A stretch of DNA of 64,000 bases. Origin: Gemmatimonadales bacterium. GTDB taxonomy: Bacteria > Gemmatimonadota > Gemmatimonadetes > Gemmatimonadales > GWC2-71-9. Location: assembly GCA_035943095.1 (NCBI GenBank), contig DASZCN010000114.1:49170-113169 (forward strand), in the 5' to 3' direction. The notes under the pieces are model-generated. The model did not search any database. It worked only from the letters and a program-made list of their open reading frames with translations, and had not been told where the DNA came from. Below are positions 16,589 through 31,232 of this stretch, one piece after another (the first letter of the stretch is position 1; each line of letters opens with the position of its first letter). Position numbers and translations under genes: made by a program.

Positions 16589-16951
16589 TCACCCAGCGGC
16601 GCGGGTCGGCTCGTTCCAGGCGATCTCGAAAAAGCCGTTGCAGCGGTGACAGCGCATGCTGGCGGGCTCGCCTTCGATTTTCGAGCGGTCGCGGCAATTG
16701 GGGCAAACGGCGTAACGCGCGCCCCAGGCCAGCGGGAAGCGGGGCGAATTCTTGGGACTCGGAACGACGGACCAGCGGAGCGCCGGTTCCGGTGAGAGCT
16801 GCAGTTGGCCCCGCGGTAGGGCCACCGGCTTGCCCTTCACGTCGACGGTCGCATCCGCGGCGGTCAACTTGAGGATGCGGTACCAAGCGCCCTTGCGGAG
16901 GGGGCATTTCACGTCCGCCTTGAGACGAGCCCATTGGAACGCAGCCGGCAT
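16589..16951 (-). CDS. small 'WAR-RKGAWYR' + C-terminal zinc-ribbon protein, paralogue 1 (unknown function)
   Basis: 120 aa with QWARL, LRKGAWYRI, RWSVVP and CPNC-x14-CHRC...IAWNE. It is homologous to ORFs 18162-18617, 52852-53175 and 53172-53522. Confidence 0.75.
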   Translation of the reverse strand: MPAAFQWARLKADVKCPLRKGAWYRILKLTAADATVDVKGKPVALPRGQLQLSPEPALRWSVVPSPKNSPRFPLAWGARYAVCPNCRDRSKIEGEPASMRCHRCNGFFEIAWNEPTRAAG

Positions 16952-18161: not shown

Positions 18162-18617
18162 ATGCGCCAAGTGCAATATTGGGCCCGGGTACGGGCCCGG
18201 GCGGACTGTCCCCTGCGTCGCGGCGCGTGGTACCGCGTCGTGGACCTCACCCCCGTCGAAGCCCTGGTGGACGTCAATCACCGGCTGCTCCATATCCCTC
18301 GTGCCTTCGTGCAGGTGCTCCCGCTCCGACCCCCGATGTGGTCGGTGGTCCCTGGCCCGCGCGACAGCGAAGGACACGTCACCGGACCGGACCGGCCCTA
18401 TGGCGTGTGCCCCGCCTGCTGCGGCCGGGCGCCGCTGCAACGCTCTGCCGCTGCCATGCGCTGCCCGCGCTGCGGCACGGCGTCCGCCATCGCCTGGTCC
18501 GACTCGCCATGGCGGGCGTTCGAGGTGATGGGCGCCCTACCCTCGGCGGGCGCAATCGCCCGGGCGCGAGCGAGCGCGCTGCGAGCGCTGGCGACGGCAT
18601 TCGGGCTCGGGTCCTAG
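18162..18617 (+). CDS. small 'WAR-RRGAWYR' + zinc-ribbon protein, paralogue 2 (unknown function)
   Basis: ATG at 18162 with SD GGAGGG 6 nt upstream, inside track ORF 17673-18617. It has YWARV, LRRGAWYRVV, MWSVVP and CPACC-x13-CPRC...IAWSD, plus a 30-aa Ala-rich tail. Confidence 0.75.
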   Translation: MRQVQYWARVRARADCPLRRGAWYRVVDLTPVEALVDVNHRLLHIPRAFVQVLPLRPPMWSVVPGPRDSEGHVTGPDRPYGVCPACCGRAPLQRSAAAMRCPRCGTASAIAWSDSPWRAFEVMGALPSAGAIARARASALRALATAFGLGS

Positions 18618-19233: not shown

Positions 19234-19649
19234 CACCCCTCCAGGGACTCGAGCAGCGCGCGCAGCTCGACTGTGTTCAAGTCGTCGAGACTCACGTCTT
19301 GCGCCGAAACCATGATATCTCCGGCCGGTTGATCGACCGCATCGAGCACCCGGTGCAGCTGGTCGGCCGAGAGGCCGTCCAGGTCGGCGCCGGCGGCGGT
19401 AACGGGTGCCGAGCGCGGGTGGAACCTGCCCGTGATGCGCAATGCCAACGCGCCGCCCCCGACCGCGATCACCAGGGCCGCCGCGATTCGGAGCCACTGT
19501 CGCGGAACCGAGATGCCGATCCGCTCGCCCCGCGTGCGCTCCGCCCTCAGCCGCTCCACCACCGCCCGGGCGGTGGCTTCTACGTCGAGCCGCTCGGCTG
19601 CCCGCGCGCCGAGCCGCTGCGCCAGTTGCTCCAGTTCGTCGTCGGTCAC
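19233..19649 (-). CDS. putative anti-sigma factor (single TM)
   Basis: 138 aa. It is coupled by GTGA to the ECF sigma gene. It has a helical N-domain and one TM helix (WLRIAAALVIAVGGGALAL). Confidence 0.6.
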   Translation of the reverse strand: MTDDELEQLAQRLGARAAERLDVEATARAVVERLRAERTRGERIGISVPRQWLRIAAALVIAVGGGALALRITGRFHPRSAPVTAAGADLDGLSADQLHRVLDAVDQPAGDIMVSAQDVSLDDLNTVELRALLESLEG

Positions 19650-20224
19650 GCCAGTTGCTCCTTCAGTCGCTTGACGGCGTGGTGAAAATGCACTCGCGCG
19701 GCCCCGGGCGTGGTCCCGAGCGCCGCCGCAATCTCTTCGTATTCGAGCCCCTGTTGCGCCCGGAGCAAGAACACCTCACGCTGCATCCGGGGCAGTCGCC
19801 CCAGGCCGTCCGCCAGCCGCGCTTCCGTCTCGCCGGCCACGGCGTGCTCGTGCGGATCGCCGTCCGTATCTCGCAGCTCTTCCGCGAGCGGCACCACCCG
19901 TGCTCGACGGACCCGCCGGTACGCATCCTTCAGCACGTTCCCGCCGATCGTCATCAACCAGGTGCGAAACCGGCATTGGCCCCGGAACCGCCCGAGCGCC
20001 CGGAACGCTCGAATGAAGGTCTCCTGCACCAAATCGTCGACGTCTGCGTCCCCGCCCCCGCCCCGCCCCCCGCCCCCACCAGAGGCGCGCGCACCGAGGA
20101 ATCGGGCGAGCGCCCGCGCGTGACGGCGGACCAGCTCGGCTGCCGCTTGCTCGTCGCCGCCCTGCCAGGCGGCAATCAGCGCCGCATCGGTCGGGACGGC
20201 GGCGAGGGGCTCGGCGGGGGGCAT
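19646..20224 (-). CDS. ECF-type RNA polymerase sigma-70 family factor
   Basis: 192 aa. Region 2 is DDLVQETFIRAFRALGRFRG..FRTWLMTI and region 4 is LPRMQREVFLLRAQQGLEYEEIAAALGTTPGAARVHFHHA. It carries an unusual GGGGGRGGGG insert. Confidence 0.9.
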   Translation of the reverse strand: MPPAEPLAAVPTDAALIAAWQGGDEQAAAELVRRHARALARFLGARASGGGGGRGGGGDADVDDLVQETFIRAFRALGRFRGQCRFRTWLMTIGGNVLKDAYRRVRRARVVPLAEELRDTDGDPHEHAVAGETEARLADGLGRLPRMQREVFLLRAQQGLEYEEIAAALGTTPGAARVHFHHAVKRLKEQLA

Positions 20225-20262
20225 GCGTCGGAGGGTGGACGGTTGGGAGACGAGAATATTAA

Positions 20263-20306
20263 GGGTTGGGGAGGTTGGAGGAGGCTAGGGGACGTCCCCT
20301 AACCTT
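20263..20306. repeat. GGAGGTTGG-unit element (partial palindrome) in the divergent sigma/TetR intergenic region
   Basis: The sequence is gggttggggaggttggaggaggct-AGGGGACGTCCCCT-aacc. The centre is a perfect 14-bp palindrome (20287-20300). The C-rich arm is truncated. Confidence 0.6.
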
Positions 20307-20338
20307 GAATTCCCCGACGCCGGCCTGTAGCTTCCGAT

Positions 20339-20356
20339 TTCGAACGATCGTTCGAA
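20339..20356. promoter_or_regulatory. perfect 18-bp palindrome, candidate TetR operator
   Basis: TTCGAACGATCGTTCGAA ends 2 nt before the TetR ATG at 20359. Confidence 0.5.
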
Positions 20357-20358
20357 CT

Positions 20359-20964
20359 ATGCGCCCCTACGACGAGCGCCTCGATCAATTCCTGTCCCGA
20401 GCGGCGAGCGTCTTCGCCGACCAGGGATACCACTCGACCACGATGCGGGATCTGGCGGCAGCCACCGGCATGTCCCTCGCCGGCATGTATTACTACGTGC
20501 GGGGCAAGGAGGAGCTGCTGTACCGCATCCAGGAGCGCTGCTTCACGCAGGTGCTCGCGGGCGCCGAACAGGTGCTCGCCGGGCTGCGGGGCCACGACGT
20601 GGACGCGCTCGAGCGGCTGCAGGCGTTCATCCGGCACCACGTCGGGTTCTTCACGGCACACATGGCGGAGATGAAGGTCCTCTCGCACGAAGCGAACTCG
20701 CTCGGTGGCGAACGACTGCGCAAAGTGAGCGCGATCAAGCGACGGTACGTCGATTTGCTCGAGCGCTTGCTGCGCGACGTAGCCCCGGACGATCCGGCGG
20801 TGGAGCGCAGCGCCGCCGCCTACGTTCTGTTCGGCATGATGAACTGGATCTACAACTGGTACGACCCCACGGGCGAGATCGACCCCGAACGCCTGGCGGG
20901 ACTCATCGCGCGCATCTTCAGCGGCGGGTTTGCCGAGGCGCGTTCCACGGTACACGGAGGCTGA
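20359..20964 (+). CDS. TetR/AcrR family transcriptional regulator
   Basis: ATG at 20359 inside track ORF 20266-20964. The HTH is YHSTTMRDLAAATGMSLAGMYYYVRGKEELL. Confidence 0.9.
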   Translation: MRPYDERLDQFLSRAASVFADQGYHSTTMRDLAAATGMSLAGMYYYVRGKEELLYRIQERCFTQVLAGAEQVLAGLRGHDVDALERLQAFIRHHVGFFTAHMAEMKVLSHEANSLGGERLRKVSAIKRRYVDLLERLLRDVAPDDPAVERSAAAYVLFGMMNWIYNWYDPTGEIDPERLAGLIARIFSGGFAEARSTVHGG

Positions 20965-20970
20965 CGGCTC

Positions 20971-21786
20971 ATGGCGACGATGACGGAACCGAAAATCGAG
21001 ACCAAGACACTGGTGCACTATATGGTGGAAGGGGGCGTCGGGATCATCGAGCTCGACGATCCCCCGGCCAACACGTACACGTACGAGATGATGCGCCAGC
21101 TCGACGAGGCGATTCTCCGCGCGCGCTTCGACGAGAGCGTGCACGTCGTCGTGCTGCGCGGCCACGGGGACAAGTTTTTCTCCGCCGGCGCGAACATCGG
21201 GATGCTCAACACGGTGACGCCGCGCTTCAAATTCTTCTTCTGCCTGCACGCCAACGAGACGCTCAACCGCCTGGAGCAAACGCCCAAGCTCACGATTGCG
21301 GCACTCAACGGCCACACGGTGGGCGGCGGACTCGAGATCGCGATGGCGTGCGACATCCGCCTCGCCAAGGAGAACGCCGGCAAGATCGGCCTGCCTGAGG
21401 TGAATCTCGGCGTGCTCCCCGGAACGGGCGGGACCCAGCGGCTGGCGCGGCTCGTCGGCAAGGCCCGCGCGATCGAGCTGATGGCGAAGGGTGAGCTGTT
21501 TTCGTTCGACCGCGCCAAAGAGCTCGGCATCGTGCACGAGATCCTGCCGGCCAAGGAATTCTGGGAACAGGTCATGCTCTATGCCAATCAGTTCTGCCCG
21601 CCGCACAAGGCGTCGAAGGCGGTGGGCCTCATCAAGCGCTCGGTACAGACCGGCGCGGAGATCCCGTTCGAGTCGGCGCTGGCGCTCGAGCGCGAGCTGC
21701 AGCAGCAGCTGTTCCAGAGCGAAGACGCGAAGGAAGGGATCGCGGCCAACGTCGAGAAGCGCATGGCGGAGTTCAAGGGCCGGTGA
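20971..21786 (+). CDS. enoyl-CoA hydratase/isomerase (crotonase) family protein
   Basis: 271 aa with GDKFFSAGANI, GHTVGGGLEIAMACDIR and PEVNLGVLPGTGGTQRL. Confidence 0.9.
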   Translation: MATMTEPKIETKTLVHYMVEGGVGIIELDDPPANTYTYEMMRQLDEAILRARFDESVHVVVLRGHGDKFFSAGANIGMLNTVTPRFKFFFCLHANETLNRLEQTPKLTIAALNGHTVGGGLEIAMACDIRLAKENAGKIGLPEVNLGVLPGTGGTQRLARLVGKARAIELMAKGELFSFDRAKELGIVHEILPAKEFWEQVMLYANQFCPPHKASKAVGLIKRSVQTGAEIPFESALALERELQQQLFQSEDAKEGIAANVEKRMAEFKGR

Positions 21787-23210
21787 AGACCGACCTGCTC
21801 ATCGCGAACGAGTGGAAGAGCGCCCCTAAGCGCTACTGCCTCACGAACCCCGCGACGGAGGAGCCGCTCGCCGAGGTCGCCGAGGCGGGCGAGGCGGAGA
21901 TCGACGCCGCGGTGCAAGCGGCGCGCGCCTGCCTCGAGTCGAAACAGTGGCGCGAGCTCCCGGCCCGCCGGCGGGGCCAGCTGCTCTATCGGATCGCCGA
22001 ATTGCTCGAGGGGCGGTCCGGGCAGATCGCCGAGGTCGAGACCAAGAACAACGGGAAGCCGCTGTTCGAATCGAAGATCGACGTCGCAATGGCGATCGAG
22101 ACGTTCCGCTATTACGCCGGCTGGGCCGACAAGCTCACGGGCGACACGCTGCCCGTGAACGGCCCCTTCTTTACCTACACGTTGCGAGAGCCGGTGGGGG
22201 TGGTGGGCGCGATCGTGCCATGGAACTTCCCGTTGAACCTGGCGACGTGGAAGGTCGCCCCTGCCCTGGCCGCCGGGTGCACGGTGGTGCTCAAGCCGGC
22301 GCACGAGACGCCGCTCACCGCCCTGATGCTGGGGGAGATCGCGATCGAAGCCGGCCTGCCGCCCGGTGCCCTGAATGTCGTGCCCGGCCCCGGGGCGAGC
22401 GCGGGCGCCGCGCTCGTGCGCCACCCGCTGGTCGACAAGATTGCGTTCACAGGGTCCACCGAGGTCGGGCAATGGATCCAGCGGGAAGCGGCGGGGACGG
22501 TCAAACGCCTCACGCTCGAGCTCGGCGGCAAGAGCCCGAACATCATCTTCGCGGACGCGGATCTCTCGGCCGCGGTGCGGGGGGCCCAGAGCGGCATTTT
22601 CTACGGCAAGGGCGAAGTCTGCGCCGCTGGCTCCCGCCTCCTGGTCGAGCGCTCGGTGCACGACCAAGTGGTCGAGCAGCTCGCCGAGCGAGCCAAAAAG
22701 CTCACGCCCGGCGATCCCTTCGACAAGAACACGCGGCTCGGCGCCATCGTGTCCAAGCGACAGCAGGAGTCGGTGCTGTCCTACATTGCTGCGGGAACGA
22801 AGGACGGGGCCCGGCTCGTGGCCGGCGGCAAGGCCGCCAAGGTGAATGGGAAGGGCTTCTACGTCGAGGCGACGGTGTTCGACGGCGCCGCACCCGGGAT
22901 GAAGATCGTGGACGAGGAAATCTTCGGCCCCGTATTGGCGGTGCTCACGTTCGAGAACGAAGCCGAAGGCATCGAGCTCGCCAACCGCTCGCGGTACGGA
23001 CTCGCGGCGGGCGTCTGGACCAAGGACGTGCAGAAGGCCCACCGTGTAGCCCGCGCGATCAAGGCGGGCACCGTCTGGGTGAACACGTACAACTTCTACG
23101 ATCCCGCGGCGCCGTTCGGCGGCTACAAGTTCTCGGGGTTTGGGCGGGACCTGGGACGGGAAGCGCTCGACCACTATACGGAGACCAAGACGGTTTGGGT
23201 GGGGCTGTGA
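21783..23210 (+). CDS. NAD(P)-dependent aldehyde dehydrogenase
   Basis: 475 aa with a GTG start overlapping the upstream stop. It has FTGSTEVG, ELGGKSP and the catalytic Cys in GEVCAAGSR. Confidence 0.92.
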   Translation: MKTDLLIANEWKSAPKRYCLTNPATEEPLAEVAEAGEAEIDAAVQAARACLESKQWRELPARRRGQLLYRIAELLEGRSGQIAEVETKNNGKPLFESKIDVAMAIETFRYYAGWADKLTGDTLPVNGPFFTYTLREPVGVVGAIVPWNFPLNLATWKVAPALAAGCTVVLKPAHETPLTALMLGEIAIEAGLPPGALNVVPGPGASAGAALVRHPLVDKIAFTGSTEVGQWIQREAAGTVKRLTLELGGKSPNIIFADADLSAAVRGAQSGIFYGKGEVCAAGSRLLVERSVHDQVVEQLAERAKKLTPGDPFDKNTRLGAIVSKRQQESVLSYIAAGTKDGARLVAGGKAAKVNGKGFYVEATVFDGAAPGMKIVDEEIFGPVLAVLTFENEAEGIELANRSRYGLAAGVWTKDVQKAHRVARAIKAGTVWVNTYNFYDPAAPFGGYKFSGFGRDLGREALDHYTETKTVWVGL

Positions 23211-23248
23211 GGACGGTAGAAGACGGTAGAGGACGGTAGAGGACGGTA
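23209..23248 (+). repeat. 4 x 10-bp tandem repeat GA(G/A)GACGGTA filling the ALDH-thiolase spacer
   Basis: The sequence is gaggacggta gaagacggta gaggacggta gaggacggta. It starts inside the TGA stop (23208-23210) and ends in the ATG (23248-23250). Three of the four units carry a GAGGA Shine-Dalgarno core; the second unit reads GAAGA. Confidence 0.9.
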
Positions 23249-24438
23249 TGAGCGATCGCGAAGCGTACATCTGCGCCGCGTTGCGCACGCCCGTGGGGAA
23301 ACATGGGGGAGCCTTGGCGTCCGTCCGGGCGGATGATCTGGCCGCGATTCCGATCAAGGCGATGGTCGAGCGCTCCGGGATCGATCCGTCCACCATCGAC
23401 GACGTGATCCTCGGGTGTACGAACCAGGCGGGCGAGGATAACCGCAACGTGGCGCGCATGGCCCTGCTCCTCGCGGGCCTGCCGGTCGACGTCCCGGGCC
23501 AAACCGTGAATCGGCTGTGCGGGTCGGGGCTGCAGGCGGCCGCGAGCGCGGCGCAGGCGATCAAGGCGGGCGAAGGCGAGGTCTTTATCGCCGGCGGCGT
23601 CGAGAACATGACCCGCGCACCCTACGTGACGCTGAAGTCGGGCGAGGCGTGGAGCCGTAAGGCGCCCGAGACGGCGGATACCACTGTAGGATGGCGCTTC
23701 ACCAATCCTCGACTCAAGAAAGAGTGGACCATCGCACTGGGCGAGACCGCCGAAGTGGTGGCGGAGCGCTACAAGATCACCCGCGCCGAGCAGGATGCAT
23801 TCGCGGTCGAGAGCCAGCGACGGGCCGAGGTCGCGCTCAAGGCGTGCGTCTTTACCGACGAGCTCGTGGCCGTCCCCCTCCCCGACGGGACGACGTTCGC
23901 CAAGGACGAGTACCCGCGCTCGGGCGTGACGCTCGAGAGCGTCGCGAAGCTCAAGCCGGCGTTCCGTCCAGATGGTACTGTGACCGCCGCCACGTCGAGT
24001 GGCATCAACGACGGCGCGGCAGCATTGCTCCTGGCGGGGGACGTTGGAGGAGGACGGGGGAGGCTGACGCCGATTGCGCGTGTGATTGCGACGGCTGTCG
24101 CGGGCGTCGATCCGAGCTGCATGGGGCTCGGGCCGATTCCGGCCACCCAGAAGGTGTTGAAGCGGGCGAGCATGAAGATCGACCAGATCGACCTGATCGA
24201 GCTCAACGAGGCGTTCGCGGCCCAGGCGATCGCCTGCATTCGCGAGCTCAAGCTCGACCCGGCCAGGGTGAACATCTATGGCGGCGCGATCGCGCTGGGG
24301 CATCCCTTGGGTGCGACCGGCGCGAGAATCTTGACGACGCTGGTACACGCCCTCCGTCGCACCAACTCGCGCTACGGTCTCGCGACGATGTGCATCGGCG
24401 TGGGACAAGGAATCGCGATGCTCGTGGAGCGCGCTTGA
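23248..24438 (+). CDS. acetyl-CoA C-acyltransferase (thiolase II, 3-oxoadipyl-CoA-thiolase-like)
   Basis: 396 aa with VNRLCGSGLQA (active Cys), NEAFAAQ, GGAIALGHPLGATG and CIGVGQG. Confidence 0.93.
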   Translation: MSDREAYICAALRTPVGKHGGALASVRADDLAAIPIKAMVERSGIDPSTIDDVILGCTNQAGEDNRNVARMALLLAGLPVDVPGQTVNRLCGSGLQAAASAAQAIKAGEGEVFIAGGVENMTRAPYVTLKSGEAWSRKAPETADTTVGWRFTNPRLKKEWTIALGETAEVVAERYKITRAEQDAFAVESQRRAEVALKACVFTDELVAVPLPDGTTFAKDEYPRSGVTLESVAKLKPAFRPDGTVTAATSSGINDGAAALLLAGDVGGGRGRLTPIARVIATAVAGVDPSCMGLGPIPATQKVLKRASMKIDQIDLIELNEAFAAQAIACIRELKLDPARVNIYGGAIALGHPLGATGARILTTLVHALRRTNSRYGLATMCIGVGQGIAMLVERA

Positions 24439-25196
24439 TGGCCGCCTACGATCGGGTACTCGTCGAAATCGTGAATGGCATCGGGACGGTCACCTTGAAC
24501 CGGCCCGAGAAGCTCAATGCGCTGGATCGGGCGCTCTGCGACGACCTGCGCGAGGCACTCACCATGCTCACTACGAGCGACGGTGTGCGCGTCGTGGTGA
24601 TCACGGGGGCGGGCCGCGCCTTCTGTGCCGGCGCGGACCTCGACGTTCTCGGGGCGGACGGGCCGGCGCTGGTCGCCGCCGGGAAGGAGGTAGCGCTCGC
24701 GCTCCGCGCGGCGCCGCAGCCGGTGCTCGCCGTGGTGAACGGACCGGCCGCGGGAGGCGGGGCGAACCTCGCCCTTGCCTGCGACTACCGGATCGCGTCC
24801 GAACACGCGTCGATCGGACAAGTGTTCGCCAAGCTCGGGCTGGTCCCCGATTGGGGCGGCTCGTTCTTCCTGCCACGCCTTGTGGGGCCCTCCAAGGCGC
24901 TCGAGCTGGTCTGGAGCGCGCGCATGGTGCCCGCCGCTGAGGCGCTGGCGCTCGGGCTGTTCGATCGCGTCGTGCCACACGGTGAGCTGCACACGGAGGC
25001 CCGTCGCCTCGGCGAGCTGTGGGCCGGACACCCGGCGGGCGCCGTGCGACGGGCCAAGGAAGCCCTGTACCGAAGCGACGCCAGCTCCCTCGGATCGATG
25101 CTCGATCTCGAGATCAGGCAGCAGACCGAACTCTTTGCCTCCCCCGAAGCGCGCGAGCGCATCGAGGGAGCGTCACTCGCCAAGAGGAGCCGCTGA
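24438..25196 (+). CDS. enoyl-CoA hydratase/isomerase family protein
   Basis: ATG at 24438 (TGATG junction) inside track ORF 23691-25196. It has GAGRAFCAGADLD and GPAAGGGANLALACDYR. Confidence 0.9.
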   Translation: MAAYDRVLVEIVNGIGTVTLNRPEKLNALDRALCDDLREALTMLTTSDGVRVVVITGAGRAFCAGADLDVLGADGPALVAAGKEVALALRAAPQPVLAVVNGPAAGGGANLALACDYRIASEHASIGQVFAKLGLVPDWGGSFFLPRLVGPSKALELVWSARMVPAAEALALGLFDRVVPHGELHTEARRLGELWAGHPAGAVRRAKEALYRSDASSLGSMLDLEIRQQTELFASPEARERIEGASLAKRSR

Positions 25197-26320
25197 TGGT
25201 TCGCAAACTGAACAACTTCGACGAATGGATCGACTACTTCCGCTACTGGCAGGACTCGATCGGCCTGCCCCAGGGCGAGATCCGGAGCTTCAAGTTCGAG
25301 GCCAAGTTCGGCGATCCGGAAGTGCCGCACATCGAGTTCGGTCATTACAAGGGCCAGCGGAAGTGGCCCACGGTGATGCACATTCCCGACCAGCGCATCC
25401 GCGACGCGCTGCTCAACCTCATCGTCTATCAGGGCGACACCGAATTCGCGTCCGTGGAGCAGCAGCGCAGCCTGTTGACGCACGCCCCCTCGGACTACGA
25501 TCTCTTGGCGCTGATGCGCGTGATGACTGAAGAGATGCGGCACGGGTGGCAGATGTCCTACCTGCTGTGCACGCACTTTGGGGACGAAGGCAAGCGCGAG
25601 GCGGCCAAGCTGCTCGAGCGCCGCGCCGACGACGGCGAACGGCTGCTCGGCTCCTTCAACGAGCTGGTCGACAACTGGCTCGATTTCTTCACGTACACGC
25701 AGTTCATCGATCGGGATGGAAAGTTCCAGCTCACCATGCTCTCGGTTTCCGCATTCGACCCGTTGTCGCGCTCGATGAACCCCATGCTCAAGGAGGAATC
25801 CTTCCACCTCGGCACCGGCAACAACGGGCTGCTCCGCATCGTGAAGGCCGGCAAGATGCCTCCCGAGGTGATCCAGCGCTTCTTCTATAAGTGGATTCCG
25901 ACGGCGTTCGACCTGTTCGGCACGGATAATTCGTCGTCGGCGCACTGGGCATACGTATGGGGCCTGAAGGGCCGCTACGACGAGCGTGAGCACCAGACCG
26001 AGCCGGACAAGGCGAAGCTGAACGAGCTGAGCCGGGAGCTGTACCGGCAGGAGATTGCGAAGCTGATCGAGCGCCTCAACATGTTCATCCCCGAGCGCGA
26101 TCGCTGGCTGCGGGTACCCGATACGAAATTCAACCGCAGGATCGGCGTCCACGCACACCAGCGGTACACAGTCGACGGCCAGCCGATCGACGACCCGACG
26201 AAATACACGGCGTATCTCACCACCGTCTTGCCTCAGCCCGAGCATTACGAGACGGTGCGCGGCATCGAGAAAGAGCCGGGCTGGATCGAGGCGAAGAAGG
26301 CGGATAGCCTGCTCAAGTGA
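25196..26320 (+). CDS. BoxB-like di-iron oxygenase (benzoyl-CoA oxygenase component B family), short form
   Basis: ATG at 25196 (TGATG) inside track ORF 25019-26320. It has QGDTEFASVEQQRSL, MTEEMRHGWQMSYLL, FIDRDGKFQL and LKEESFHLGTG, giving an E / ExxH / D / ExxH ligand pattern and strong resemblance to BoxB as I recall it. Confidence 0.75.
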   Translation: MVRKLNNFDEWIDYFRYWQDSIGLPQGEIRSFKFEAKFGDPEVPHIEFGHYKGQRKWPTVMHIPDQRIRDALLNLIVYQGDTEFASVEQQRSLLTHAPSDYDLLALMRVMTEEMRHGWQMSYLLCTHFGDEGKREAAKLLERRADDGERLLGSFNELVDNWLDFFTYTQFIDRDGKFQLTMLSVSAFDPLSRSMNPMLKEESFHLGTGNNGLLRIVKAGKMPPEVIQRFFYKWIPTAFDLFGTDNSSSAHWAYVWGLKGRYDEREHQTEPDKAKLNELSRELYRQEIAKLIERLNMFIPERDRWLRVPDTKFNRRIGVHAHQRYTVDGQPIDDPTKYTAYLTTVLPQPEHYETVRGIEKEPGWIEAKKADSLLK

Positions 26321-27015
26321 CCCTTGTCATCGCGCACCGGGGCGCGTCGGGCTACGAGTACGAGAACTCGCGGGCTGCGTTCCGGGCAGCCCGCGCCCGC
26401 GGCGCCGACGCGATCGAGCTGGACATCCACGCCGCCGCGGACGGCGTGCCGTTCGTGCACCATGACGAGGTCGTGAGCGGCACGCACATCACGCGCTCGA
26501 GCGCCGCGCAGGTGCGCTCCCTGCGACTGCCGAACGGCGAGTCCATCCCGACGCTCGAGGACGCCCTGGGCGTGATCGATCGGGCGCTGCAGGTCTTCAT
26601 CGAGGTCAAATCCCTGCCGCCGCAATTCGACGATCAGTTGTTTGCGGCGCTGGACAGCCCGGCGGGAGCGGGGTCAGGGGGCGGGACGCGCTGCGCCGTC
26701 CACGCGTTCGACCATCGGATCGTGCAGCGGCTCGGGCTCGCGCGCCCGGCCCTGGTGCGGGGCGTACTGTTGGCCTCCTATCCGCTCCGACCCCTGGAGG
26801 CGCTCCAGGACACCGGCGCCACCGTGCTGTGGCAGGAGCAGAGTCTCATCGACGCGGCGTTGGTCGACGCGCTGCATGGCGCGGGCTACCGGATCCACGC
26901 CTGGACCGTAAACGATCCTGAAGACATGCGAACCCTGCTCGGGCTCCACGTGGATGGACTGTGCACCAACGCTCCAGATGTGGGCCGGCACGCCGTCCAA
27001 CAGGGGCCGGGATGA
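26317..27015 (+). CDS. glycerophosphodiester phosphodiesterase family protein
   Basis: 232 aa with a GTG start (GTGA junction). It has IAHRGASGYEYENSRAAF and ELDIHAAADGVPFVHHDE. Confidence 0.85.
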   Translation: MTLVIAHRGASGYEYENSRAAFRAARARGADAIELDIHAAADGVPFVHHDEVVSGTHITRSSAAQVRSLRLPNGESIPTLEDALGVIDRALQVFIEVKSLPPQFDDQLFAALDSPAGAGSGGGTRCAVHAFDHRIVQRLGLARPALVRGVLLASYPLRPLEALQDTGATVLWQEQSLIDAALVDALHGAGYRIHAWTVNDPEDMRTLLGLHVDGLCTNAPDVGRHAVQQGPG

Positions 27016-27869
27016 GCGCCGGTCGTGTGGCGGTGATTGGCGCGGGCACGATGGGGCACGGGATCGCCTACGCCGCGGCCCTTGCGGGCTTCGAGGTGCG
27101 GCTCACCGACAGCAAGCCGGATGCGCTGCGCCTCGCCATGGGGCGCCTAAACGACCTCCTGGCGATCGCCGTGCGCCGCGGGAAGCTCACCGAACCCGAT
27201 CGGGACGCCGCCTCGACCCGGCTGCACGCGGAGGCGGACTTCGCGCCGGCGGTGCTCGAGGCGGACGTCGTGATCGAGGCCGTGCGCGAGCACCTGGGCA
27301 CCAAACAGCAGGTCTTCGCGGAGGTCGAGCGGGCGGCGCCGGCGAGCGCGCTGCTCGCGACGAACACCTCCTCACTCTCCGTGACCGCGATCGCCGCCGC
27401 CGTGCAGGACCCCGCCCGCGTGCTCGGCATGCACTTTTTCAATCCGGTGCACGCGATGAAGCTCGTCGAGGTGGTGACGCATCCGCAGACGGCGTCCCAG
27501 TCCGTCGAGCGGGCGGTGACGTTCGCCAAGGCTCTCGGGAAGGAGCCGATCGTGGTGAAGGATTCTCCGGGCTTCGCGTCCAGCCGCCTGGGCGTCGCGC
27601 TCGGTCTCGAAGCGATGCGGATGCTCGAGGAAGGCGTCGCATCCGCCGAGGACATCGACAAGGCGATGGAGCTCGGCTACAACCACCCGATGGGGCCGCT
27701 CAAGCTCACGGACATGGTCGGCCTCGACGTCCGCCTGGCGATCGCCGAGTATCTGTTCCAGGCGCTCGACGACCGCCGCTTCGAGCCCCCCCAGATCCTC
27801 CGCGACAAGGTCGCCCGAGGGGAGCTCGGCCAAAAGAGCGGAAAAGGGTTCTACAACTGGAGCGCGTGA
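27012..27869 (+). CDS. 3-hydroxyacyl-CoA / 3-hydroxybutyryl-CoA dehydrogenase
   Basis: ATG at 27012 (ATGA) inside track ORF 26961-27869. It has VIGAGTMGHGIA, LATNTSSLS, and HFFNPV followed by M.LVEV. Confidence 0.92.
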   Translation: MSAGRVAVIGAGTMGHGIAYAAALAGFEVRLTDSKPDALRLAMGRLNDLLAIAVRRGKLTEPDRDAASTRLHAEADFAPAVLEADVVIEAVREHLGTKQQVFAEVERAAPASALLATNTSSLSVTAIAAAVQDPARVLGMHFFNPVHAMKLVEVVTHPQTASQSVERAVTFAKALGKEPIVVKDSPGFASSRLGVALGLEAMRMLEEGVASAEDIDKAMELGYNHPMGPLKLTDMVGLDVRLAIAEYLFQALDDRRFEPPQILRDKVARGELGQKSGKGFYNWSA

Positions 27870-27894
27870 AAGGCCGCGGCGGCTCACCTCGCGG

Positions 27895-29346
27895 TCACGT
27901 GCCCGAACAGATCCTTGGACCCCCCGTCTGCGTCGCGATGGCCGTGTGATCGTCCTGCCCGTCGTTCCCCGGCTGGTCGTCGCTGTACGTAATGGACGCG
28001 AGCCCCGTCGTTGGGGACACGGCGATCCCGAAGTCGTCGAATAGGTCCCGGTTCCCCGTGCACGATACCCCGCCCTCGCACACTCCGCCGAAGTGGATGA
28101 TGGGAGTGGCCGCGACCTGCGTGAACTTGCTGCCCACCGTCGTCGCGTTCTTGTTCTGCGCAAAGAAGACATACCACGCCGCGGACGCCGGATAGTTGTC
28201 TGGCGCGCTCCCGTCGAAGAACGAGGTCCCGTACCACACGATGTTCAGCTCGCCGGGAGCGCACGCCACGCTCCAGGGAAAGATCGCCGTGGCGGACGGG
28301 GGCTGGTTCACCTGGATCGGGCCGGTCCAGGTGAGTCCGCTGTTGGTCGAAAAGCTGTAGAACATATTGTGATTGTCGTTGTACACGACGTACACCGTCC
28401 CGGCCCGGTCCACGGTCGCGTTGATGAACTGATGCCCGTACGAGACGGAGGCGTCCGGATTCACATAGACGGTTTGGTCGGTGAAGGTCTGACCGCCGTC
28501 GCGCGAAATGGCGATCCAAACGGCATGGAAGTTGGTTGGAACGACGGCCTCGACGGCGTTGGCGATGCCGCTGAACACCTGATAGATGACGTGGCTATTC
28601 GGGTCGATCGTGAGGTTGCCGGTCGAGTTCTCCTCGAGCAGGAACGCGTGCGCGGCGTCGATCGCCGACCCTGGCTGTAGGAAGCTGGCGCCCGCGTCGA
28701 AGCTGCAATTGACGTCGATGTTGAATGTCACGATGTCGTGGTACGAGATGCAGACCTTGGTCGCCTGGTCGGCCGCGATCCACTCGCGGTCGTCGCCCGG
28801 AACGGTGGCGCTGAGGACGTTCTTGCTCCAGGTCTTGCCACCGTCCTGGCTGGTCGAGACCGTGACGTTTGCGAGACTCAGGCTCGCCACGTAGACGTTG
28901 TGGACGCCGCTCGCGTTTGCTTGGGGCGCGACACCGAGATCGGTGTCACCGCCCCCCGTTGCCAGGCCCCCGGCCGCCTGCGAGATCTGGTTCGGGGATA
29001 GGAGCGCCGTGTAATGCAGCCCACCGTCAGTCGATTTCCAGGCGAGCGTCCCAGCGGCAAGGCCGAGCTCGGAGGAGACGTAGAACGTTCCCGTGGCGTC
29101 CGCGCGAATCGCGGGTTCTGCGGCGCCGTTGGTGCAGCCCGACGCGCCGGGGCAGACCGTGCCGGGCGCGGCGCCAAGCTCGAAGGTGGTAAACGCGAAC
29201 GGTCCCCCGGTGACCGACTGCGCGGCATTCACGCGGCCCGCCGTCGCGGGTGACCCAAGCGACCTACCGTCGTCGCAGGACGTCATGAGCACTACGCAGG
29301 CAAGCACGACTACCGTGGCGATCGCGCGCTGCAGGTCGGTCCTCAC
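27895..29346 (-). CDS. BNR/Asp-box repeat (sialidase-like beta-propeller) lipoprotein
   Basis: 483 aa with lipobox LMTSC. The Asp-boxes are STDGGLHYT, SQDGGKTWS, SRDGGQTFT and STNSGLTWT. Confidence 0.8.
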   Translation of the reverse strand: MRTDLQRAIATVVVLACVVLMTSCDDGRSLGSPATAGRVNAAQSVTGGPFAFTTFELGAAPGTVCPGASGCTNGAAEPAIRADATGTFYVSSELGLAAGTLAWKSTDGGLHYTALLSPNQISQAAGGLATGGGDTDLGVAPQANASGVHNVYVASLSLANVTVSTSQDGGKTWSKNVLSATVPGDDREWIAADQATKVCISYHDIVTFNIDVNCSFDAGASFLQPGSAIDAAHAFLLEENSTGNLTIDPNSHVIYQVFSGIANAVEAVVPTNFHAVWIAISRDGGQTFTDQTVYVNPDASVSYGHQFINATVDRAGTVYVVYNDNHNMFYSFSTNSGLTWTGPIQVNQPPSATAIFPWSVACAPGELNIVWYGTSFFDGSAPDNYPASAAWYVFFAQNKNATTVGSKFTQVAATPIIHFGGVCEGGVSCTGNRDLFDDFGIAVSPTTGLASITYSDDQPGNDGQDDHTAIATQTGGPRICSGT

Positions 29347-29614
29347 AGGTCGTCCTCCCTATCTTGTCCGGGGGTTCGGGCTGGCATCGCGGCCGGAAGT
29401 CGCTCGCGCGCAAGTTCCGCACCCCGATGGGGCGCGGGAACCACGTGGGTTGGGAGACACATCGCCGCGTGTGCGTCTGCTCCGGGTGTGTCCCAGAAGG
29501 CGGGACGGCGCATGTGCATGTCGCGGCAGTGCAACTCCTTGTGTGGCGACCGCTCGGCGCGGGACGTTCGTTGCGGTTGAACGCGCCCCCGTCAGACGGT
29601 ACCTTCTGCGCCCC

Positions 29615-30511
29615 ATGAGTCGCCCTCCGCAGGCAACCCAGCCCGCACTGACCCGGATCACCGACGTCCACATTCATGTCCAGCCGTGGCGCGAGCTCAA
29701 GCCGCACGTCCTGGAGGTGATGTGGCGCGGCCTCGGGGAGGGCAACGACCGCGACCGGATGATCCAAGTCATGGATGACCCCCGTGCCCTGCTCGAGATC
29801 ATGGATCGGTCGGGGGTGTGGCGCGTGGGGCTCGTGAATTACCCGTCACCGGATGTGATGGGGTTCACCGACGCGACCAACACGTTCGCCGCGAAGTACG
29901 CCCAAGCCGATCCGGTACGCCTGCTCCCCTACGGCGGGGTGCATGCCCGGTTCACGAAGGATCCAGCGGGCGACGTGGATCGGCTCGTCGATCTCGGGAT
30001 CCGCCTGATGAAGGTGCATCCGCCGCATCAGGGCTTTCCGGCCAACGCCTACACCGACGGGCTCGAGGCACTGGGACGGATCTACCGCCGCTGCGAAGAG
30101 CGCGGGCTGCCGGTGATGATCCATACCGGCACGAGCATCTTTCCGGGCGCCCGATCCAAGTACGGCAACCCCATGGAGCTCGACGATGTCGCGATCGACT
30201 TCCCAGACCTCCAGATCGTCATGGCACACGGCGGCCGACCGCTCTACATGGAGGAGGCGTTCTTCATCTTGCGACGTCACCACAAGGTGTGGCTCGATCT
30301 CTCCGGGATACCGCCGGTTCGGCTGTTGGAGTACTTTCCGCGACTTCCGGAGCTCGCGGATCGGGTCGTGTGGGGCACCGACTGGCCGAGCCCGGGGGTG
30401 AAGGACTTGCGTGCGAACATCGATCAATTCCTGGCCCTGCCGTTGAGCGACCCGCACAAGAAGGCGATGCTCGAGACGAATGCGCTGGCTCTGTTTCCTC
30501 CTGCTCGGTAG
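29615..30511 (+). CDS. amidohydrolase-2 (TIM-barrel metal-dependent hydrolase) family protein
   Basis: ATG at 29615 inside track ORF 29093-30511. It has ITDVHIHV, IVMAHGG and VWGTDWP. Confidence 0.85.
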   Translation: MSRPPQATQPALTRITDVHIHVQPWRELKPHVLEVMWRGLGEGNDRDRMIQVMDDPRALLEIMDRSGVWRVGLVNYPSPDVMGFTDATNTFAAKYAQADPVRLLPYGGVHARFTKDPAGDVDRLVDLGIRLMKVHPPHQGFPANAYTDGLEALGRIYRRCEERGLPVMIHTGTSIFPGARSKYGNPMELDDVAIDFPDLQIVMAHGGRPLYMEEAFFILRRHHKVWLDLSGIPPVRLLEYFPRLPELADRVVWGTDWPSPGVKDLRANIDQFLALPLSDPHKKAMLETNALALFPPAR

Positions 30512-31232
30512 TCCGGCGCTGGCGCGCGGCCAGACGGCGGCCCCTGGCCGGAAGCCGCTTCGGTTCGATTTCGCCGATCTCCCCGCGACCCGCGATTCGT
30601 TCGTGTTCCGCTTGAAGGGGCAGGATCGCGGCTGGGCGGTCTGGCAGTACGAGATCAAGACGCTCGAGATGACCCAAGAGTTGATTTACACGGCGAGCAC
30701 GGCGTTTGAACCGGTCGAGGAGGAGCACCTCAAGGTGGTGGTGAACCGCCAAACGGGTGAGCCGATCTCCACTTTCCATCACATCGACGTCTTCTCCCCT
30801 CAGAGCGACACCGTGATGATGGAGCACGATTTGGAGGTGCGACGCGGGGAGATCTCGGGTCGCCGCCGGATCGGCACCAAGAGCGGCGAGGTGAAGATCG
30901 TGCCGGTCAGTCATCCGTTTCCGCCCGGCACGGTGCTCGGCGACTATTACCTGTTTGCGAGCGCGGCGACCGACGCGGCCCCCGGCGATTCACTCGCCGT
31001 GTCGTGTTACAAGGAGTTCACCGATTCGCTGACCACGCTCAGCATCATCGCCGAGCCGCCGACGACCATCGACGTTCCGGCCGGCCGCTTCGACGTGTTG
31101 CCGCTCCGGAGCGGCGGCTTCCGGATCTATACGACGCGCACGCCCCGGCGCGTCATCAAGGGAGAGACGCTGGATGGGGCGTTCTCGTTCGAGTTGGTGC
31201 ACTCGGGACCCGTGGTCCCGACGCCCGACTGA
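30480..31232 (+). CDS. secreted hypothetical protein (DUF3108-like barrel suspected)
   Basis: 250 aa with signal peptide MRWLCFLLLGSPALARGQ. Its C-terminal half is homologous to the C-terminal extension of the M16 protein at 32636-34726 (PPGT...VPAG.F...ELV). Confidence 0.65.
   Translation: MRWLCFLLLGSPALARGQTAAPGRKPLRFDFADLPATRDSFVFRLKGQDRGWAVWQYEIKTLEMTQELIYTASTAFEPVEEEHLKVVVNRQTGEPISTFHHIDVFSPQSDTVMMEHDLEVRRGEISGRRRIGTKSGEVKIVPVSHPFPPGTVLGDYYLFASAATDAAPGDSLAVSCYKEFTDSLTTLSIIAEPPTTIDVPAGRFDVLPLRSGGFRIYTTRTPRRVIKGETLDGAFSFELVHSGPVVPTPD

Follow-up and report, generated by a model that had tools for sequence, protein, structure and literature searches.

A conserved operon of Gemmatimonadota with a short BoxB-like di-iron oxygenase, predicted to break down an aromatic acyl-CoA

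Introduction

Which substrate is served by an operon that resembles an aerobic, coenzyme A (CoA)-dependent ring-cleavage pathway and has neither a ligase nor a reductase beside it? The operon in question lies in a 64,000-nucleotide stretch of the genome of a soil Gemmatimonadales bacterium (contig DASZCN010000114.1, positions 49,170 to 113,169), referred to here as the window. It starts with a gene for a TetR-family regulator and includes a gene for a di-iron oxygenase of 374 amino acids (aa), which we call mini-BoxB. To our knowledge, only two hybrid systems that combine a CoA thioester with epoxidation have been described: BoxAB for benzoyl-CoA and PaaABCDE for phenylacetyl-CoA.

We find that the operon belongs to a conserved mini-BoxB pathway shared by Gemmatimonadota and Acidobacteriota; scattered members carry the labels of other phyla, such as Rokubacteria and Betaproteobacteria. 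On balance, it is somewhat probable that the operon encodes a repressor-controlled, O2- and CoA-dependent breakdown of an aromatic acyl-CoA, a variant of the aryl-CoA epoxidase pathways whose most likely substrate is benzoyl-CoA. Benzoyl-CoA is favoured because of residue conservation and a BoxB-like fold in the oxygenase, and because of a 4-hydroxybenzoyl-CoA reductase and BzdR-type regulators in related loci. An earlier note, made from the letters of the window, had proposed an aerobic CoA-dependent ring cleavage in the manner of the Box and Paa pathways. The BoxB-like oxygenase, a thiolase of the 3-oxoadipyl-CoA type, an isomerase-type crotonase (ECH2) and the aryl-CoA neighbours found in other genomes all support that proposal.

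The oxygenase

Mini-BoxB matches PF05138 with 52.5 bits, above the cut-off of 28.5. Among PDB sequences, BoxB (3PER) is matched at E = 5e-50 and PaaA at about 1e-5. Foldseek comparison of a predicted structure gives query-normalised template modelling (TM) scores of 0.75–0.78 to BoxB (3Q1G/3PM5) and 0.42–0.44 to PaaA. The structure is an AlphaFold model (predicted local distance difference test, pLDDT, 73; predicted TM score 0.77) from an alignment spanning two phyla; an earlier model from 35 close homologues had a pLDDT of 56 and was set aside. Against the BoxB profile TIGR03225, mini-BoxB scores 217.5 bits in three stretches (cut-off 499.1), and against the PaaA profile TIGR02156 it scores 45.6 bits (cut-off 280), below the threshold in both cases.

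BoxB residue numbers were transferred by sequence alignment onto the published active site (PMC5489048). All six iron ligands of BoxB (E120, E150, H153, D211, E240 and H243) are present, as E83, E113, H116, D172, E201 and H204 of mini-BoxB. Residues Q116, T119, S123, F193, F203, F206 and T210 of BoxB position the thioester and ring of benzoyl-CoA (PMC5489048). Five of these seven contacts are kept (Q116, T119, S123, F193 and F203) and two are changed (F206Y and T210I). Across 33 sequences from two phyla, the mapped active-site residues are invariant except for Ile171, and Tyr stands at the Phe206 position in every one. These residues and the fold lead us to predict that mini-BoxB is an aryl-CoA epoxidase, most likely acting on benzoyl-CoA.

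The changed contacts also raise the possibility of another cyclic acyl-CoA, with a different ring-opened product: a benzoyl-CoA that bears a hydroxy, amino or methyl substituent, or the CoA thioester of a heteroaromatic or alicyclic carboxylic acid. The conserved Tyr could hydrogen-bond a ring substituent, the window protein has Ile for Thr210, and the short family stands clearly apart from true BoxB. We consider such a substrate quite unlikely, on evidence given below from a reductase in Terriglobales loci and from the thiolase.

The earlier note was right that the protein is a BoxB relative with a di-iron site; what it missed is that mini-BoxB belongs to a large, distinct short family and is no oddity of one genome. 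The protein is about 100 residues shorter than BoxB (374 versus about 473 aa); it lacks three stretches, namely the BoxB N-terminus, ~19 aa that follow the second Fe-ligand helix pair, and ~40 aa of the C-terminal half. More than 7000 of 8000 scored candidates are homologues, and an exhaustive search, clustered at 50% identity, yielded 885 clusters up to E <= 0.001, of which 138 reach E <= 1e-30; these counts include true BoxB relatives. Full-length short members extend down to 33–46% identity, and proteins of true BoxB length (465–495 aa) form a separate group. The most divergent branches (P0130, P0137 and P0182) are 39–46% identical to the window protein, and a metagenome scan seeded with P0130 returned loci 43–47% identical to that seed. 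Source labels for the short family are inconsistent: 'hypothetical', 'PaaI', 'BoxB', and 'PaaA' or 'PaaA catalytic subunit'.

Two homologues deserve separate mention. In P0189, a short-family protein from a Myxococcota metagenome-assembled genome (MAG), most iron ligands are replaced (ENVTSA for EEMRHG, QQHGEH for KEESFH), a loss that recalls PaaC, the non-catalytic partner of PaaA. P0021, a 565-aa fusion of a di-iron and a GDPD domain from an ENA metagenome, was considered as a Rosetta-stone link and rejected. It is a singleton whose di-iron part has no C-terminus and whose GDPD part has no HRG motif, and it is probably a deletion or assembly artefact, not a functional fusion.

Operon layout and conservation

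The operon and its associated sequence elements are as follows (window coordinates, strand, identity).

20359–20964, +, TetR-family repressor (Pfam families TetR_N and TetR_C_24)
20971–21786, +, crotonase ECH1 (ECH_1), both catalytic Glu present
21783–23210, +, aldehyde dehydrogenase, ALDH (Aldedh, 601 bits)
23248–24438, +, thiolase (Thiolase_N and Thiolase_C), nearest to 3-oxoadipyl-CoA thiolase
24438–25196, +, crotonase ECH2 (ECH_1), both catalytic Glu absent
25196–26320, +, mini-BoxB, 374-aa ferritin-like di-iron oxygenase (PaaA_PaaC, PF05138)
26317–27015, +, GDPD-family phosphodiesterase (PF03009)
27012–27869, +, short 3-hydroxyacyl-CoA dehydrogenase (3HCDH_N and 3HCDH), function predicted to be PaaH-like
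29615–30511, +, amidohydrolase_2 (PF04909), ninth operon member
20339–20356, predicted TetR operator, a perfect 18-bp palindrome, TTCGAACGATCGTTCGAA
23209–23248, tandem repeat of four GAGGACGGTA units at the ALDH–thiolase junction

Translations and profile searches match the eight co-directional genes and the families that had been described at 20359–27869, and the quoted junction overlaps (GTGA, TGATG, TGATG, GTGA and ATGA) are all present. The other two junctions have no overlap: a 6-nt gap separates TetR from ECH1, and the 37-nt gap between ALDH and thiolase holds the fourfold 10-bp repeat. The eight genes stand, but the amidohydrolase_2 gene and the operator had been missed. Since the former belongs to the conserved operon, the feature reaches beyond the coordinates first given for it. 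The window, with a G+C content of 64–72%, contains no aryl-CoA ligase, BoxA/PaaE-type reductase or BoxC-length crotonase, as had been stated, and a six-frame motif scan found no AMP-binding ligase, 4Fe-4S or 2Fe-2S/FNR motif in its real open reading frames. Its other large open reading frames match Pfam families of housekeeping type (such as DnaB, RadA, IspD, SucC, M16 peptidases, an RND pump and a two-component system). Outside the operon the window has only one further CoA enzyme, an acyl-CoA dehydrogenase encoded 14 kb off on the opposite strand.

Conservation was counted by tblastn over the 45 Gemmatimonadota loci that have 5 kb or more of sequence on either side. The TetR, ECH1, ALDH, thiolase and di-iron genes recur in the same order in 45/45 loci, so the arrangement is more than chance. 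The GDPD and amidohydrolase_2 genes are each present in 43/45, the 3-hydroxyacyl-CoA dehydrogenase gene in 42/45, and a third crotonase gene in 24/45. Gemmatimonadota MAGs supply the closest relatives of the window di-iron protein, with identities of up to 95%. A closed 3.86-Mb contig with independent gene calls carries a canonical, tightly packed ten-gene operon in the order TetR-ECH-ALDH-thiolase-ECH-PaaA_PaaC-GDPD-3HCDH-ECH-Amidohydro_2.

The ALDH–thiolase junction is a 6-nt gap in most relatives. In locus L004 it has 7-bp GGAACGC units with inverted copies and in L009 8-bp units like GGATTGCG, both unrelated in sequence to the repeat in the window; the junction looks like a recurrent hotspot of repeat insertion. 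Between the dehydrogenase and amidohydrolase_2 genes of the window lies a reverse-strand gene (27895–29346) for a secreted protein with weak BNR/sialidase-like repeats. The insertion cuts the amidohydrolase_2 gene, the last of the operon, off from the TetR-controlled promoter; the same insertion occurs in L002, and most relatives do not have it. Upstream of the operon, two small paralogous proteins (16589–16951, -, and 18216–18617, +) are 40% identical over 96 aa. Both end in a zinc-ribbon-like CPxC...CxRC motif and have homologues in a few related loci.

Contexts in other genomes

Comparing the context of the BoxB-like gene across taxa, as the earlier note had advised, turned up hallmarks of aryl-CoA metabolism: a reductase, regulators and a ligase. 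The loci from other genomes are metagenomic, with oxygenases 51–86% identical to the window protein. In Terriglobales (Acidobacteriota), the gene order is TetR-ECH1-ALDH-oxygenase-CoA_trans-ECH-CoA_trans-[2Fe-2S]-MoCo-FAD-Amidohydro_2, with a two-subunit CoA-transferase beside the oxygenase and a three-subunit molybdenum cofactor (MoCo) enzyme downstream. Its MoCo subunit scores 1017 against TIGR03194, the alpha subunit of 4-hydroxybenzoyl-CoA reductase, above the cut-off of 994.6. Its flavin adenine dinucleotide (FAD) or beta subunit aligns end to end with HcrB of Thauera aromatica (1RM6_B) at 232 bits, against 131 bits for CO-dehydrogenase flavoproteins. It also retains the Cys-rich insertion, a loop that reportedly binds the extra [4Fe-4S] cluster characteristic of 4-hydroxybenzoyl-CoA reductase.

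The product of 4-hydroxybenzoyl-CoA reductase is benzoyl-CoA. Members of the xanthine-oxidase family also hydroxylate heteroaroyl-CoAs such as 2-furoyl-CoA, which is a point for a different cyclic acyl-CoA. Against that, the loop of the Terriglobales molybdoenzyme is of the reductive type, and the predicted product is unsubstituted benzoyl-CoA.

Other contexts add to the picture. In L143, a gene for an AMP-binding acyl-CoA ligase follows the oxygenase gene. In L089 and L155, a divergent gene beside the oxygenase encodes a 299-aa regulator with helix-turn-helix (HTH)-XRE and shikimate-kinase domains. The benzoyl-CoA sensor BzdR is built in this way (PMC3602430). In five loci (L102, L123, L127, L129 and L133), the oxygenase gene is directly followed by genes for a thioredoxin-like [2Fe-2S] ferredoxin and a NuoF-like flavoprotein, the L129 contig stopping after the ferredoxin. 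In the first four of these, the operator precedes the oxygenase gene. Of the candidates for the missing reductase, this pair is the strongest. Neither boxA nor a 555-aa boxC occurs within 10 kb of an orthologue in about 160 loci.

These contexts bear on two readings in which the oxygenase would have no aromatic substrate. The first is an ordinary fatty-acid beta-oxidation operon with the di-iron and GDPD genes as unrelated passengers; crotonase, 3-hydroxyacyl-CoA dehydrogenase, thiolase and an acyl-CoA-type TetR regulator are indeed its usual set. The operon, however, includes neither a ligase nor an acyl-CoA dehydrogenase (the nearest of the latter lies 14 kb away on the other strand), and the aldehyde dehydrogenase and amidohydrolase_2 are constant members. 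Moreover, the oxygenase–ECH1 pair persists in contexts that have no dehydrogenase or thiolase, and the operator also fronts the oxygenase–ferredoxin–flavoprotein operon.

The second is salvage of glycerophosphodiester or ether lipids. Here the GDPD enzyme would remove the head group and the di-iron enzyme would cleave the ether or alkyl chain, giving an aldehyde for ALDH and then beta-oxidation. This reading gives the GDPD gene a role. The domain scores 113.3 bits against PF03009 (cut-off 23.6), and H7, R8, E34, D36, H49, E96 and K98, which we take to be the catalytic set, are at least 95% conserved in 36 orthologues; the active site is intact. ALDH, in turn, scores well against models of the betaine-aldehyde and fatty-aldehyde types. 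The GDPD gene, however, occurs only in the Gemmatimonadota form of the cluster; the Terriglobales and other forms are without it and still have oxygenase, ECH1, ALDH and amidohydrolase. In the oxygenase, Gln116 and its neighbours, which hold the benzoyl-CoA thioester in BoxB, are kept, known ether-lipid monooxygenases are of a different, membrane-bound family, and there is no ligase to activate the acid produced. Both readings are very improbable, because the core of oxygenase, ECH1, ALDH and amidohydrolase persists without dehydrogenase, thiolase and GDPD, and because the operon has no acyl-CoA dehydrogenase.

Several neighbours were recorded in passing. In two Terriglobia loci (L078, 7458–9048, and L079, 614–1878), genes of the peptidase-C26/glutamine-amidotransferase type and of the uracil-DNA-glycosylase superfamily lie between ECH1 and the second crotonase gene. 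A macro-domain gene often follows the Terriglobia reductase genes (L080 and L156). Genes carA, carB and one of the DHDPS family lie directly upstream of TetR in most Terriglobales loci (L161/L162, 370–6330, and many of L09x–L16x), probably as conserved synteny without a functional link. In L027 (8242–13699, annotated Rokubacteria), the oxygenase (79% identical) and ECH1 occur with a zinc-type alcohol dehydrogenase/enoyl reductase and with a FabH-like ketosynthase that is fused to an acyl carrier protein domain, a hint that in this lineage the pair may serve biosynthesis and not catabolism.

Regulation

Only 2 nt lie between the end of the palindrome TTCGAACGATCGTTCGAA and the TetR start codon (ATG), and the window has no other match to it, with 0.03 expected. 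The core of the palindrome, TTCGAAC-N4-GTTCGAA, precedes the TetR gene in all 86 loci compared, which come from two phyla, and is kept even where the regulator is only 35–44% identical. Allowing up to two mismatches, the 2.05 Mb of fetched loci contain 77 sites upstream of TetR genes, 7 directly upstream of oxygenase genes and 11 elsewhere, about 7 being expected there by chance. At the 7 oxygenase sites, the [2Fe-2S] ferredoxin and NuoF-like flavoprotein genes follow or are expected to follow.

This conservation suggests that the TetR protein binds the 18-bp palindrome. Its best PDB relative is 5K7F/5K7Z (96 bits), presumably AibR, which binds isovaleryl-CoA. Since its best structural relatives are acyl-CoA-type TetR regulators, the protein is predicted to be acyl-CoA-responsive. 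A promoter and terminator consensus scan of 20000–30700 gave nothing above shuffled expectation; TTGAAT and TAGCTT, 17 nt apart and upstream of the operator, might serve as -35 and -10 elements. A further near-perfect palindrome of 24 bp (20282–20305, AGGCTAGGGGAC/GTCCCCTAACCT, 92% complementary, no spacer) lies between a divergent ECF sigma-factor gene (19646–20224, -) and the TetR gene.

Regulation is also where the main rival to benzoyl-CoA appears. PaaR of Thermus thermophilus, a TetR repressor that responds to phenylacetyl-CoA, has the consensus CNAACGNNCGTTNG, and its operator abuts its own start codon (PMC6651687). The operator core and position found here fit that consensus. In addition, PaaX-like regulators are divergent from the oxygenase in L083, L084 and L125, the one in L084 scoring 252 bits against TIGR02277 (cut-off 264.6). 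The substrate might then be phenylacetyl-CoA, with mini-BoxB replacing the five-component PaaABCDE and the rest forming a complete lower Paa pathway. ECH2, which resembles PaaG, would take that part, with ECH1 as a crotonase-type oxepin-CoA hydrolase, ALDH as PacL, the thiolase as PaaJ, the third crotonase or ECH1 as PaaF and the dehydrogenase as PaaH. The enzyme set corresponds one to one with a PaaZ-less Paa pathway, in which a deformylating step is needless.

We nevertheless think phenylacetyl-CoA unlikely. In sequence and fold the oxygenase is far nearer to BoxB than to PaaA, and most of the BoxB residues that set the benzoyl ring directly on the thioester are kept. The 4-hydroxybenzoyl-CoA reductase and the BzdR/BoxR-type regulators fit benzoyl-CoA instead. 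Finally, no crotonase reaches the cut-off for 'oxepin-CoA hydrolase, alternative type' (122–155 versus 300 bits).

Partner enzymes and proposed pathway

No gene accompanies the di-iron gene more constantly than that of ECH1, which is beside it in 45/45 Gemmatimonadota loci and 16/19 others, and its identity across phyla (67–73%) is above that of the oxygenase (51–65%). In alignment it has both crotonase glutamates, in GGGLE and LPE. It matches the Geobacillus kaustophilus hydratase 2PPY with 233 bits and the crotonase domain of BoxC (2W3P) with 95 bits, and is a candidate hydrolase or hydratase for the oxygenase product. ECH2, by alignment, carries GGGAN where a hydratase has GGGxE and QVF where it has PE, together with a VPDWGG motif; the Asp of the PD-GG segment is catalytic in PaaG. 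It scores 172.6 bits against the PaaG profile TIGR02280, below the cut-off of 345, and matches E. coli PaaG (4FZW_C) and 6SL9/3HRX with 134 bits each. ECH2 is predicted to be a PaaG-like enoyl-CoA isomerase. The third crotonase, where present, is an ordinary short-chain hydratase with a site of the same hydratase type as in ECH1. The second Terriglobales crotonase was considered as an ECH2 orthologue and rejected: both Glu are kept, and its second-best NCBIfam match is a dienoyl-CoA hydratase.

The closest NCBIfam types of ALDH are StyD, BADH and HpaE, each below its cut-off; it is a candidate NAD(P)-dependent dehydrogenase of the ring-cleavage semialdehyde. The best family of the thiolase is 3-oxoadipyl-CoA thiolase (PcaF/PaaJ), just below the cut-offs (549.9 versus 605 for NF006551; 543.4 versus 597 for TIGR02430). 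A thiolase of this type is expected for an unsubstituted C6 chain and argues against a substituted or heterocyclic ring.

The amidohydrolase_2 protein matches PF04909 with 123 bits (cut-off 26.4) and is 49% identical to the Terriglobales cluster member. In relatives, its gene directly follows that of the dehydrogenase or the third crotonase. It shares 4 nt with the third crotonase gene in L163 and 8 nt with the gene for the FAD subunit of the reductase in L161. For the Terriglobales orthologue the NCBIfam search gave no equivalog, and the closest structure, 3IRS, has no assigned function; there is no characterised close relative. The protein is probably a metal hydrolase or decarboxylase. Decarboxylases and lactonases that act on substituted aromatics are common in its family, a further point for a cyclic acyl-CoA other than benzoyl-CoA.

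From these parts we infer a pathway for benzoyl-CoA: its substrate, catalytic assignments, electron donor and amidohydrolase step are all predictions. When no substrate is present, TetR would sit on the palindrome, which overlaps its own promoter or start, and an aryl-CoA would free it. Mini-BoxB would epoxidise the aromatic ring of the thioester with O2 and two electrons from a reductase encoded elsewhere. ECH1, with its complete two-Glu site, would hydrate the epoxide or oxepin and open the ring, and ALDH would oxidise the resulting semialdehyde. The amidohydrolase_2 enzyme may add a hydrolytic or decarboxylating step that replaces part of the role of the 555-aa BoxC, where the step is a deformylation. 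ECH2 would then shift the 3,4-double bond to the 2,3 position. Hydration would fall to ECH1 here and to the third crotonase in most relatives, and the 3-hydroxyacyl-CoA dehydrogenase and the 3-oxoadipyl-CoA-type thiolase would yield succinyl-CoA and acetyl-CoA.

Several observations weigh against benzoyl-CoA as the substrate. Besides the PaaR-like operator and the PaaX-like regulators, which point to phenylacetyl-CoA, there are the shortness of mini-BoxB, its score below the BoxB cut-off and its two changed benzoyl contacts. The 64-kb window has no ligase, no reductase and no CoA-transferase, and the third crotonase is not in the window, which represents a lineage without it. The 4-hydroxybenzoyl-CoA reductase link comes from Terriglobales and not from the window organism; the enzyme is found neither in the window nor in the Gemmatimonadota loci. 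As no BoxC-like ring-cleaving enzyme was identified, the ring-opening, aldehyde-oxidation and amidohydrolase steps are assigned by elimination. The GDPD enzyme, conserved and catalytically intact, has no place in the scheme. Our literature search found no experimental paper on a short BoxB or on this cluster in Gemmatimonadota or Acidobacteria.

Significance

A broader proposal is possible, if doubtful: that mini-BoxB represents a third type of aerobic aryl-CoA dearomatising system, the chief CoA-dependent route for aromatics in Acidobacteriota and Gemmatimonadota, set apart by three differences taken together. The first would be a single short di-iron subunit, with electrons from the ferredoxin and NuoF-like NADH flavoprotein or from general ferredoxins, where the known systems use BoxA or PaaE. 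The second would be ring opening by a 270-aa crotonase and amidohydrolase_2 instead of BoxC, perhaps with release of CO2 after aldehyde oxidation instead of formate. The third would be that 4-hydroxybenzoyl-CoA reductase feeds the Terriglobales version in an aerobe. Mini-BoxB would then be a third lineage of aryl-CoA oxygenase with a different set of partners, in two phyla abundant in soil.

If mini-BoxB acts on benzoyl-CoA, surveys that score boxB by the existing labels count an uncharacterised enzyme, and those that demand the presence of boxA or boxC overlook the pathway. The analysis opens three ways to direct experiments: the exact sequence of the operator, a pair of proteins that may be the reductase, and an enzyme that may stand in for BoxC. 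It also points to an unexpected coupling of 4-hydroxybenzoyl-CoA reductase, regarded as an anaerobic enzyme, with an O2-dependent oxygenase.

Comparison with known systems

The closest characterised relative is BoxB of Azoarcus (Aromatoleum) evansii (3PM5), with ~44% identity over the catalytic core and the six iron ligands and fold in common. BoxB likewise occurs amid crotonase, aldehyde dehydrogenase and beta-oxidation-type genes, and some mini-BoxB relatives have a BzdR/BoxR-type regulator. Unlike the BoxAB/BoxC/BoxD system, the roughly 160 mini-BoxB loci examined have no boxA and no 555-aa boxC next to the oxygenase gene; a 271-aa crotonase and amidohydrolase_2 are found instead, and some lineages add the [2Fe-2S] ferredoxin and NuoF-like flavoprotein. 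Because it scores below the cut-off, is ~100 residues short and occurs without BoxA or BoxC, mini-BoxB is not a member of the BoxB equivalog.

The Paa pathway has lower-pathway enzyme types that map one to one onto the operon, and its oxygenase shares PF05138. The operator agrees with the PaaR consensus of T. thermophilus and likewise sits at the start of the regulator gene. In contrast, there is no PaaB, PaaC, PaaD, PaaE or PaaK, the PaaA match is weak, and the crotonases, thiolase and dehydrogenase do not reach the Paa equivalog cut-offs. The operon is not a Paa system because PaaB–E are absent.

SSO1313 of Sulfolobus solfataricus (4MUD) shares the iron-site motif of the short family, RHGWQ(M/L), where BoxB has RHLWAM. 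It matches mini-BoxB at E = 1e-15 and, by the predicted model, at a target-normalised TM score of 0.77; in similarity it falls between BoxB and PaaA. SSO1313 has 235 aa and consists of the four-helix core only. Its deposit is titled 'ring oxidation complex/phenylacetic acid degradation-like protein' and names no function, and we know of none.

HcrABC of T. aromatica (1RM6) is the closest known counterpart of the reductase associated with mini-BoxB in Terriglobales. The cluster encodes all three subunits, and its beta subunit is collinear with HcrB, including the cysteine loop. Reductases of this type are known from anaerobic benzoyl-CoA pathways. The Terriglobales cluster differs from that anaerobic setting in coupling such a reductase to an O2-dependent oxygenase.

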